64,000 nt of DNA, from the IMG/VR virus record IMGVR_UViG_3300022902_000004, positions 62,268 to 126,267 of that record, one strand, 5' to 3'. How positions within the stretch are numbered: position 1 is the first letter of the stretch; each line of letters opens with the position of its first letter. The position numbers and the translations under genes are program-made. The notes below the pieces were generated by a model. It was not told where the DNA came from. It made no database searches and saw nothing but the letters and a program-made list of their open reading frames with translations. The stretch is from a virus. Shown piece by piece: positions 26,365 to 27,773 of this stretch.

Positions 26365-26883
26365 TTATTTTCCTACCTTGGCAGCTAAGCCCAAGAATGC
26401 GAAGATTTCGGTCATTTCCCGATCGAGATCTTCATCGTCTACGTTCAAAAGCAAAATGTCGCACTTCGACCACTTTGCAAACTCATGATACCTATCATGA
26501 ATACTCTTGATTGTCTTGTTCACAATCTGATAATCGTCTTTGCACATCGAATAATCAGTCCGAAATGGAATGATAATCTTGGTGCCCAGTGCGGCATGCC
26601 TTGCATCTAAGGCCTCCAAAACCGACATGTCTGTTGGCCTATTCAGAACGTGACTATAGACGTACTCTGATGGCCACGCCCTATCCAGAATGACCGAATT
26701 ACCGGATGCCTCGAGGTACGATGTGAAATATGTGTCCACATAGCGAATCGCGTTCTTGAAGTACGACGGATCTGACAGGAAATACTCGTGTTCATCCTTA
26801 TTTTTGAAGTACGTGATATCCGACATGCGGGCGAGTTCCAGTGCCATATTAGTTTTTCCACAGTTATCAATCTGGCCCGTCAA
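26365..26883 (-). CDS. thymidylate/dNMP kinase-like protein; N-terminal P-loop apparently split by a frameshift (see findings)
   Basis: DR(Y/W) motif VILDRAWPSEYVYS. The CGKT half of Walker A is in this frame; the FDGPD half lies in an upstream 19-codon mini-ORF in another frame. Confidence 0.55.
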   Translation of the reverse strand: MTGQIDNCGKTNMALELARMSDITYFKNKDEHEYFLSDPSYFKNAIRYVDTYFTSYLEASGNSVILDRAWPSEYVYSHVLNRPTDMSVLEALDARHAALGTKIIIPFRTDYSMCKDDYQIVNKTIKSIHDRYHEFAKWSKCDILLLNVDDEDLDREMTEIFAFLGLAAKVGK

Positions 26884-26915
26884 AGATAATAATCTTTTGA
26901 CGGGCCTTCACCTCG

Positions 26916-27773
26916 TTAGCTTGCATTGTTTTTCTCCAATAGTTTGACGTGTTTGTCATTTACAACCATGTCTCTTGTGATTGTAGTTGAATCTTCTGTA
27001 AAGATCAAAAACGTAAGATTATTGTCCAGGCAATATTTGTCCGCGGCCTCAAATTTCATACGATTTGTTTTTGAATTAACCAACTTTGCAGGCTTAACCT
27101 CCACAAGAAGTTTTAATCGCTCAATTAGTATGTCAGGCACATATGTTCGCTTTTGCTTGTTGAAGCCGATATAAGGGATTCGCAGGCATTCATGCTGCAT
27201 TTCTTCCATGGAAATGCCAATCGATTCAAAATGCTTCATACAAACTAATTCCAGCAAGCTTCTAAAAAACACACCCTTATAGTAGCCCTTGACTCCTTTT
27301 CCTGATAACTTTGGGGCAGGTTTTCCAAACATTGGATTGTTGTCGCCACTTGACGCCGCGGATTGCTTTGCGATGATCGCGGCTGCCTTTTCAGGCCCAT
27401 ATCGATCAATGTAATTTATTCCTTTCATTGTGCGACAAAATGCAGCAAATTCAGGGCGCTGCTTGCCATACATTGGATTATTTTTGCCGCTGGTGACTAA
27501 ACTCATTTTTTCAACAAATAAATCATATTTTTTCTTGCCAGCTTCCTTTCCATGTTTTTGTTGAAAACCTTCGAGCGAGTTTGTTAAGTTTCTAATCCCC
27601 TCGACATTTCTACCGCCATTTGCATGTGACCAAATATTAGAACATGAACGATTGCAAAACCGCTTGCCGCCGGTTCGCCCTTTTAATGTTGTCTTTCCGC
27701 ATTGCTCGCATACAACTTCTCGTAATTTGTTTTTTCTCATATGTCTAAATATCGGTTCAAAACAAATCCGCAA
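26916..27773 (-). CDS. free-standing homing-endonuclease-like protein (Zn finger, NUMOD-like NPMYGK repeats, C-terminal PD-(D/E)xK-like)
   Basis: CEQCG...CNRSC, GKNNPMYGKQRPEF and GDNNPMFGKPAP repeats, TYVPDILIER...VEVKP. Confidence 0.55.
   Translation of the reverse strand: MRICFEPIFRHMRKNKLREVVCEQCGKTTLKGRTGGKRFCNRSCSNIWSHANGGRNVEGIRNLTNSLEGFQQKHGKEAGKKKYDLFVEKMSLVTSGKNNPMYGKQRPEFAAFCRTMKGINYIDRYGPEKAAAIIAKQSAASSGDNNPMFGKPAPKLSGKGVKGYYKGVFFRSLLELVCMKHFESIGISMEEMQHECLRIPYIGFNKQKRTYVPDILIERLKLLVEVKPAKLVNSKTNRMKFEAADKYCLDNNLTFLIFTEDSTTITRDMVVNDKHVKLLEKNNAS

Follow-up and report, generated by a model that had tools for sequence, protein, structure and literature searches.

The endonuclease MobA of phage T4 is an HNH-type enzyme. 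Together with the translational bypass in gene 60 it constitutes one mobile element (bioRxiv 10.1101/2022.08.31.505936; Bonocora et al. 2011, cited there), in which the bypassed insert, and not nearby substitutions, prevents self-cleavage, a stop codon follows the take-off codon, an Asp codon (GAU/GAC) serves for take-off in some clades, and bypassing outlasts the loss of the endonuclease (bioRxiv 10.1101/2022.08.31.505936). Pairing within the mRNA leaving the ribosome has been put forward as a force that drives bypassing onward (bioRxiv 10.1101/2024.12.09.627546). Stop-hops between matched codons and so-called saviour indels are also documented, and according to Atkins et al. 2016 no natural use of in-frame stop-hopping is known (PMC5009743). 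So far, the known cases of bypassing linked to a homing endonuclease are the T4 gene 60 element and its homologues; the function and origin of that element are debated. Here we describe a locus in a 64,000-nt stretch of viral DNA (IMG/VR record IMGVR_UViG_3300022902_000004, positions 62,268 to 126,267; the whole stretch is referred to as the window), in which a thymidylate-kinase-like gene is interrupted by 4 nt in its P-loop codons, next to a free-standing homing endonuclease gene (HEG). The MobA/gene 60 element is the closest known system; the cassette described here is an analogue of it and not a member, because its nuclease fold and its target gene are different, its gap is ten-fold shorter and it has no take-off stem-loop.

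All locus coordinates given below lie on the minus strand of the window. A sequence-only reading of this DNA had noted a kinase P-loop split over two frames by an excess of 4 nt, and this was borne out. The first part is a mini open reading frame (mini-ORF) of 19 codons plus TGA (26926-26867; ATG 26926-26924, stop TGA 26869-26867), which encodes MQANEVKARQKIIIFDGPD, terminates right after GPD and shares 11 nt with the 3' end of the HEG. Its GGAG ribosome-binding site (26937-26934), which had been recognized as well, lies within the last codons of the HEG, 7 nt ahead of the ATG, and an identical GGAG-N7-ATG is present in the related loci L001, L003, L006, L017 and L027. The last sense codon, GAT (Asp19, 26870..26872), is invariant across all modules and is the proposed take-off codon. 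It is followed by the coding gap TGAT (26866..26869), within which TGA (26869-26867) would be the A-site stop and GAT (26868-26866) the matched, proposed landing codon. The kinase body (26365..26865) runs from AAC TGT GGA AAA ACT (NCGKT) to its stop as an intact ORF, shifted by +1 against the mini-ORF frame, continuing past the gap as (D)NCGKTNMALELA...ILDRAWPSE.... The open +1 frame around it, which the sequence-only reading had taken as the main ORF with a DR(W) motif, comprises 172 codons (26883-26365) and indeed reads ...TGQIDNCGKTNMALELA...ILDRAWPSE..., continuing to 26365. The Walker A motif GxxxxGK[ST] is complete only on skipping 4 nt, with IIIFDGPD in frame 0 and NCGKT in frame +1. 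Deletion of TGAT (26869-26866) restores GPDNCGKT, as had been predicted, and yields IIIFDGPDNCGKT, which agrees with intact homologues such as P0004 (MQNNEVRAHQRTIIFDGPDNCGKT). All intact homologues carry [DE]Gxx-x-xGK[ST], and the GxxxxGK[ST] spacing is kept in 103 of 103.

The identification of the gene as a kinase also held up. It matched PHROG 761 'thymidylate kinase' (1.3e-11), and Pfam gave sub-threshold matches to AAA_14 and AAA_28 and nothing else. An AlphaFold (AF2) model of P0002, an intact homologue with 87% identity, had a pLDDT of 94, and its top Foldseek matches in the PDB were YorR (3kb2), thymidylate kinases and deoxyadenosine kinase (E ~1e-5). In the modelled structure, strand beta-1 (IIIF) and the leading half of the P-loop (DGPD) come from the mini-ORF. 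The gene product is thereby predicted to be a P-loop dNMP/thymidylate-kinase-like enzyme with the nucleoside(-monophosphate) kinase fold, the name 'thymidylate kinase' being a JGI and PHROG annotation label rather than one based on an assay. The mini-ORF is a cassette-borne replacement for the kinase 5' end. Within the kinase family, a subfamily has Ala for the second Walker A glycine, GPDGCAK[ST] (P0218, P0224, P0227 and L055); some of its members have DRGHGSE in place of DRAWPSE, and the P0218 and L055 kinases carry a C-terminal extension of ~60 amino acids (aa). P0009, P0070, P0076 and P0011 were called with Cys/His-rich N-terminal extensions of 45-65 aa (e.g. MKCSHCNGECCYLEK...FCKQCEDGTQT), which may be true fusions or may result from reading through a zinc-ribbon ORF located upstream.

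The interruption is real, recurrent and unusual, and is more than chance or error. A sequencing or assembly error, or a slippage-prone phase-variable switch, had been considered on the grounds of a short tandem repeat at the junction. The 4-nt excess stands, but the sequence is GAT-T-GAT, superficially repeat-like and imperfect; homopolymer and tandem tracts are absent, and within each lineage the site does not vary. The junction bases are identical in the independent, low-coverage ENA assembly L030; the truncated kinase call P0207 occurs on 25 contigs of up to 318 kb, and an identical HEG on 12 contigs. Comparable interruptions were found in at least 9 further lineages (at least 10 in all), and the gaps are homologous even where the kinases are just 40-70% identical. 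Assembly error is refuted, because independent assemblies and many lineages share the gap, and the explanation by error or phase variation as a whole is very improbable. Several of the 120 kinase homologues read 'GQIEGCGKT' or 'GPIEGCGKT', which corresponds to an out-of-frame GPD plus extra bases. Truncated gene calls were an unreliable proxy for interruption, P0102 and P0090 being intact with an earlier start.

In these lineages (at least 10) the module consists of a HEG or its remnant, a hairpin mini-ORF, a stop right after GAT, a gap of 4, 5, 6 or 7 nt, and an undamaged kinase body. Homologous mini-ORFs were identified in L001, L003, L006, L017, L019, L037, L038 and L055, and a HEG or remnant lies immediately upstream in the window, L001/2, L003/4, L006, L017/18, L019, L038/39 and L055. 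1) L001/L002 and L003/L004, with a HEG 47% identical to that of the window, have the mini-ORF MRNNEVLARQKIIIFDGPD-stop and the junction GAT TGA AGG.. (gap TGAA). 2) L006, in which the HEG is present, has MEKNEVRAHQKIFIFDGPD-stop and the junction GAT TGA AGG (gap TGAA). 3) L017/L018 retain only the last ~27 codons of the HEG, followed by a mini-ORF of the window type and the junction GAT TGA TAA CTG. 4) L019 has a HEG remnant and an in-frame stop, with the junction GAT TAA GGC AAT TGT GGA (gap TAAGGC). 5) L038/L039, with a HEG 54% identical, have MKNIGDSARQDIIIFDGPD-stop and the junction GAT TAG ATG GTT, the 5 extra nt (gap TAGAT) placing the kinase in the -1 frame. 6) L055, with a C-terminal HEG stub and a kinase 40% identical, has MNKQETWARQTVVVADGPD-stop and the junction GAT TAA GTA CGG ATG, with 7 extra nt (gap TAAGTAC); its native P-loop GPDGCAKST is confirmed by the intact relative P0218. 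The same interruption was seen in protein sequence in P0042/P0216 and P0107, and the available L037 sequence stops at ...GGGCCGGATT. Searches with blastn and tblastn of 50,697 deposited phage records gave no match and no cultured relative, and a HEG protein query against IMG/VR found nothing. Pattern scans of IMG/VR and GTDB for the junction and the hairpin returned only L005 (the L001 contig), L080 (the L055 contig) and chance matches in high-GC DNA. The arrangement of HEG, gap and mini-ORF was not found described in the literature searched.

The gene upstream of the mini-ORF (27740-26916, 274 aa) had rightly been taken for a homing endonuclease gene. Its product matched Tn7_TnsA-like_N (1.4e-10) and NUMOD3 (2.8e-09) in Pfam and consists of an N-terminal Cys cluster, two NUMOD3 motifs and a C-terminal PD-(D/E)xK (TnsA-like) nuclease domain, in which D203, E214 and K216 are invariant in alignment with the L001 and L003 proteins (47% identical). 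With its TnsA-like PD-(D/E)xK domain and NUMOD3 motifs, the 274-aa protein is therefore considered a free-standing homing endonuclease. No HNH family was matched in Pfam, and the sole HNH-labelled match was a weak one to phrog_15471 in PHROG (2e-4), limited to the Cys cluster (residues 4-45). The HEG is patchy in otherwise collinear genomes: it is present in the window, L001, L003, L006, L034 and L038, cut down to a C-terminal stub in L017 and L055, and not present in L024, L027, L020 and L022. In the HEG tree both main clades hold gap-bearing loci. Distant members of the family (30-39% identical) are located directly upstream of ordinary tmk genes with intact P-loops (L010 ~1900, L013 ~960 and L062 ~1500), and from such positions the HEG family overall seems to be associated with P-loop kinase genes.

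Comparison between lineages indicates that a mobile homing-endonuclease cassette has its right-hand end at the interrupted site. The stretch GGCCCGTC...GACGGGCCAGATT is nearly invariant between lineages despite HEG proteins that are 46-58% identical across clades, and nucleotide conservation is lost 0-15 nt past the gap. Between the window and L017, the HEG stub and mini-ORF are 95% identical, whereas the following 60 kinase codons are 76-80% identical. The interrupted P0216 and the intact P0213, which has a HEG-less-type N-terminus, differ, past a short tract of co-conversion, by ~1 residue in 150, and this pair looks like a homing event caught in progress. As judged by these alignments, the cassette has entered diverged kinase genes by horizontal movement, the exchanged segments ending at or just past the gap, and the gap-bearing module persists after HEG loss.

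On the left side, positions 27767-27840 of the window are a relic of the pre-invasion locus and the trace of an imprecise invasion. Codons 1-15 of a kinase 5' end (MSQQIVIFDGPDNCG, 27767..27811) have the same amino acids as the N-terminus of the intact P0002, and their synonymous sites differ from those of the downstream kinase copy. The relic is broken in the P-loop codons, after the Gly of Walker A (between C-G and K-T), and its frame extends into cassette DNA as far as a stop at 27737, giving a 24-codon ORF (MSQQIVIFDGPDNCGFVLNRYLDI-stop, 27811-27737). It is preceded by a 29-nt remnant of a methyltransferase gene 3' end (27812..27840; ...gaaaagatggaagtcccggagagtttacgATG in the window vs ...gaagatggaagtcccggagaatctacaATG in L024). 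In the HEG-less L024 a methyltransferase gene lies between thyX and the kinase, and the homology of the window to L024 ends exactly past GACAATTGCGG(A). Since the relic (27811-27767) followed by AAA ACT... (26856 onward) reads as a perfect P0002-type kinase, the HEG might be thought to reside in a group I intron or a similar element, with the exon MSQQIVIFDGPDNCG being spliced to KTNMALELA. However, an Rfam scan of 25800-28900 at E <= 1 gave no intron match and a chance sRNA match only; the ~26 nt 5' and ~60 nt 3' of the HEG ORF (<90 nt of non-ORF sequence) could not accommodate an intron core; the last base of the 5' exon would be A or G instead of the usual U; and L001, L003, L006 and L038 have the same mini-ORF and gap with no upstream kinase relic that could serve as an exon. 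Splicing is thus a highly unlikely explanation.

The P-loop codons are flanked by the breakpoint on the left, after G15, and by the exchange boundary on the right, after D12 plus the gap, which suggests that the enzyme cuts there. The relic is broken after codon 15, the exchange boundaries lie at the gap, and the P-loop DNA is altered in all HEG-positive genomes; from these three observations we infer that the HEG cuts HEG-less kinase alleles within the P-loop codons (D-x-C-G-K) and that the carrier allele is resistant. Every HEG-positive genome departs from the naive genomes at this site, including L034 (and likewise L035, L036 and L053), the one clade in which a close HEG (53% identical) lies beside an uninterrupted kinase (L034 2501-3826). 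In this kinase type the hairpin is absent and the P-loop codons carry substitutions (GAT CGC ACG GGA, encoding GPDRTGKT); the substitutions look like an alternative immunity route that spares the gene. In the interrupted loci, the gap would separate the two halves of the target and so render the carrier genome immune to its own HEG, an interpretation adopted because of the T4 MobA precedent. This core of the interpretation, a mobile cassette combined with disruption of its own target, is highly probable.

A further element of the module is an RNA hairpin within the mini-ORF, GGCCCGTCAAAAGA / TTATTA / TCTTTGACGGGCC (26874..26906), which is conserved. It has 13 bp, its 3' arm is formed by the F-D-G-P codons, and it ends 1 nt short of GAT. 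Its minimum free energy in the window is -25.1 kcal/mol (z = -4.15). Over nine modules, pairing was retained in 92% of cells, compared with 56% or less with slid partners, and three pairs were changed on both sides. All 8 interrupted lineages with DNA read gave -22.8 to -26.5 kcal/mol (43 nt ahead of the Asp codon), whereas 24 hairpin-less intact loci gave -0.8 to -9.7 kcal/mol. The 5' arm is encoded by an N-terminal extension (..A-R/H-Q-K/R..) peculiar to the cassette-type N-terminus. The sequence 3' of GAT is not conserved; the sole conserved structure is located 5' of the take-off codon. A Shine-Dalgarno-like GAGG (26911..26914 in the window) or GGAG is found 4 nt ahead of the hairpin in the window and in L001, L003, L006, L017, L019, L027, L037, L038 and L055, and its position is kept in L038 and L055 despite a different encoded peptide. 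Its role may be to pause trailing ribosomes, or it may be what is left of a former ribosome-binding site. Among 25 intact loci the hairpin was detected in one, the HEG-less L027 (P0004; -23.0 kcal/mol). This allele (L027 3001-3075) is intact and HEG-less, yet has the cassette-type N-terminus and the hairpin; P0008 and P0200 are likewise, as seen in protein only. Alleles of the L027 type are either the ancestral target or 'hit-and-run' revertants without HEG and gap.

The hairpin, the GAT codon and the stop suggest a way in which the kinase might still be made. A ribosome on the mini-ORF would pause with peptidyl-tRNA-Asp on GAU and UGA in the A site; the hairpin, re-folding in the mRNA leaving the ribosome, would pull the message forward; the tRNA would re-pair on GAU 4 nt downstream; and decoding would restart at AAC UGU GGA AAA ACU to give the normal GPDNCGKT P-loop. 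The product of such a +4 hop would carry the junction IIIFDGPDNCGK. Such an event would amount to a miniature 'stop-hop' or bypass, perhaps an inefficient one, in the manner of a saviour indel. The complete reading, i.e. a mobile HEG cassette whose gap destroys its own target while the kinase is rescued by a short hop from GAU, is the one that we prefer, although it seems to us evenly poised between right and wrong. Cassette membership, the gap lengths of 4-7 nt, the hairpin and the kinase 5' relic are points that were absent from the sequence-only reading. That reading had listed a pseudogene and a programmed frameshift among the explanations; both survive as families of explanation, and each needs revision.

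The frames of the five gap types bear directly on the question of frameshifting. A stop codon, as the expected slow codon, comes right after GAT in all five (TGA, TGA, TAG, TAA and TAA). The gaps of 4, 5, 6 and 7 nt place the kinase in three different frames, and therefore only frame-independent bypassing could rescue all of them. A conventional programmed +1 frameshift at GAU UGA (prfB- or antizyme-like), with the product GPD-D-NCGKT, would fit the A-site stop after the last zero-frame codon and the +1 position of the kinase in the window and in the TGAA lineages. However, tRNA-Asp would be unable to re-pair on AUU (GAU to AUU), a 9-residue P-loop would result against the invariant spacing of the intact homologues, and the homologous modules would need +2/-1 (L038), 0 (L019) or +1 with two extra codons (L055). 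This explanation is improbable. In L038 no start codon is available in the kinase frame, which is closed by a stop 4 codons upstream; on the sequence of this locus, only a shift at GAT-TAG could express the kinase. The codon pair for take-off and landing is GAT/GAT in the window type and L038, GAT/GAA in L001, L003 and L006, GAT/GGC in L019 and GAT/TAC in L055, and skipping the gap in the window type and L038 gives the canonical family P-loop GPD[NG]CGKT.

Several other routes to a kinase product were considered and rejected. An independent start in the +1 frame (TTG 26883 in the window; ATG in L001, L003 and L006) is not conserved, does not exist in L038 and would lose strand beta-1. Re-initiation at the Met after GKTN would give a product without a P-loop, and L003 has no such Met. 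Stop-codon reassignment does not agree with the use of all three stop codons and with the different frames, and no tRNA, and hence no suppressor or quadruplet-reading tRNA, is present in the window.

Whether the interrupted kinases are maintained is the second question, and here the strongest competing explanation has to be weighed: the cassette and the gap-based immunity would be the same, with no rescue, so that each invasion knocks out a dispensable kinase, the interrupted genes seem healthy owing to the recency of the invasions, and old copies decay or are deleted, following the homing cycle usual for parasitic elements. The kinase body of the window has no deviation at the 42 columns that are at least 95% conserved among the 103 intact homologues, and the interrupted kinases of ~10 lineages show no second lesion and no change at these near-invariant columns, which speaks against a knock-out. 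The sole apparent case of decay, L055 with its GCAKST and DRGHGSE, was rejected as such: GCAKST is normal for its subfamily (intact P0218, P0224 and P0227), and both features are common to intact relatives. The three lineages that have lost the HEG, which were located via the kinase body and not via the mini-ORF, all retain the ribosome-binding site, start, frame, hairpin, GAT-stop and an intact kinase, whereas a dead 5' fragment need not persist. The stop kept directly after GAT via three different stop codons likewise speaks against a knock-out, which also does not account for the use of the gap-abutting codons by the hairpin or for the co-occurrence of hairpin and gap. The ratio of nonsynonymous to synonymous substitution rates (dN/dS) was 0.06-0.15 for interrupted kinases and 0.07 between intact genes, and relative-rate tests gave no relaxed selection; these tests were judged uninformative on selection after the interruption, because cassette transfer is more recent than kinase divergence, and L001/L002, L003/L004, L038/L039 and window/L030 are too similar for substitution counts.

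On the other side, a number of observations weigh against ribosomal rescue or in favour of a knock-out. The invasions look recent, the cassette being far more alike between lineages than the neighbouring kinase DNA (95% vs 76-80% for window and L017) and P0216/P0213 being near-isogenic as an interrupted and an intact allele; therefore the lack of decay and the low dN/dS are no proof of selection after interruption, and the argument from the HEG-losing lineages is partly weakened. MobA insertions are likewise recent-looking and possibly parasitic (Manning and Atkins, bioRxiv 10.1101/2022.08.31.505936). Neither the length nor the sequence of the gap is conserved, and 3 of the 5 gap types have a non-cognate landing codon (GAA, GGC or TAC). 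The hairpin is not exclusive to interrupted alleles, as it occurs in L027. The substitutions in L034 show that immunity is possible without gene breakage, and thus that the gene is not always preserved by design. A gap of 4-7 nt is too short for an A-site take-off stem-loop of the gene 60 type. Finally, the fused kinase is a prediction from the DNA, as are the cleavage specificity and the immunity. Taken with these points, a knock-out without rescue is possible, though on balance doubtful. The loci may represent a natural, maintained family of micro-bypass elements made up of a PD-(D/E)xK HEG, a stop-opened gap of 4-7 nt that would immunize the carrier, a driver hairpin and perhaps a Shine-Dalgarno-like pause site, from which the normal enzyme would be made by ribosomal rescue; we propose this tentatively, as a view that falls just short of an even call.

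The correspondence with MobA/gene 60 extends to several features. In both, the endonuclease gene, a cassette copy of the flanking target segment and a non-coding insert move as one unit; the insert lies within codons of invariant catalytic residues and is opened by a stop after the take-off codon; it is kept after endonuclease loss; the insertions look recent though the element is old; and an upstream mRNA stem-loop is implicated in forward movement. The differences are that the gap is ~50 nt there and 4-7 nt here, leaving no room for an A-site take-off stem-loop; that no gap-internal mini-Shine-Dalgarno sequence was identified in the present cassette; that the nuclease here is PD-(D/E)xK/TnsA-like with NUMOD3 and its target a kinase and not a topoisomerase; that the HEG is upstream of the target gene and does not split it; and that a cognate landing codon is present in only 2 of the 5 gap types, bypassing here being a proposal. 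In E. coli stop-hops (PMC5009743) re-pairing likewise takes place at a matched codon a few nt past the stop, and GAU-U-GAU (window) and GAU-UA-GAU (L038) fit this pattern; those hops were engineered or low-level, whereas the arrangement described here occurs naturally, is conserved and is associated with a mobile element. The 'saviour indel' in the G-run of the herpes simplex thymidine kinase gene (PMC5009743) is similar in that an indel in a kinase gene is useful for another reason (here presumably escape from the endonuclease) and in that a few ribosomes may restore sufficient enzyme. It differs in depending on homopolymer slippage and drug selection, whereas here there is no slippery run and the adjacent HEG is the presumed selective agent. 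With the free-standing Seg/Mob HEGs of T4 and their intronless homing (Edgell et al. 2010, PMC2988022; Barth et al. 2023, PMC10448857), the locus shares the patchy occurrence of a HEG between conserved nucleotide-metabolism genes, exchange boundaries at the nuclease locus and a carrier that differs from naive genomes at the presumed cleavage site. In those systems immunity is achieved by gene-sparing substitutions (as in L034), and an immunity polymorphism that breaks the frame is unusual.

The cassette is flanked by conserved genes. To its left is thyX, encoding a flavin-dependent thymidylate synthase (28786-27848; Pfam Thy1, 1.3e-15), whose position is unchanged in L001, L003, L017, L024, L027 and L034. 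To the right of the kinase is a nucleoside 2-deoxyribosyltransferase gene (26364-25894; Pfam, 3.1e-12), whose product has 99% amino-acid identity between the window and L017. Farther upstream, an ORF at 28830-29852 encodes an NT5C 5'-nucleotidase domain together with an N-terminal region that weakly resembles dUTPase_2, and the two parts are separate genes in L001 (121 aa and 315 aa). Additional nuclease genes were seen around the deoxyribosyltransferase gene of related loci: a GIY-YIG domain fused to the deoxyribosyltransferase ORF in L001 (5260-6396), a 97-aa GIY-YIG ORF following the deoxyribosyltransferase gene in L038 (1865-2158) and a 312-aa DUF7487 ORF between kinase and deoxyribosyltransferase in L024 (3904-4842). 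The nucleotide-metabolism block is, by its gene content, a hotspot for HEGs. Elsewhere in the window, three other nuclease ORFs are HEG-like: a second TnsA-like plus NUMOD3 protein (14532-15365, 277 aa), a GIY-YIG plus NUMOD3 protein (32224-33003, 259 aa) and an endonuclease-I-like ORF (19817-20728, 303 aa), which lies directly upstream of a DNA polymerase III alpha gene (16257-19820). The genome of the window is, on these domain assignments, rich in HEGs.

If ribosomal rescue of the interrupted kinases is true, the cassette would be a second, independently evolved instance of the MobA/gene 60 strategy and the first natural case of short stop-hopping, and a target-breaking insert combined with ribosomal rescue would be a general answer to the problem of HEG self-cleavage. 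With its ~75 nt it would also be a minimal model in which to examine how the ribosome is moved forward by a stop codon and an upstream hairpin, and would warn annotators that 'frameshifted pseudogenes' beside HEGs in phage genomes may be functional. If instead each invasion knocks out the kinase, the cassette would be a homing element that routinely sacrifices its neighbour gene, which would be unusual for free-standing HEGs.

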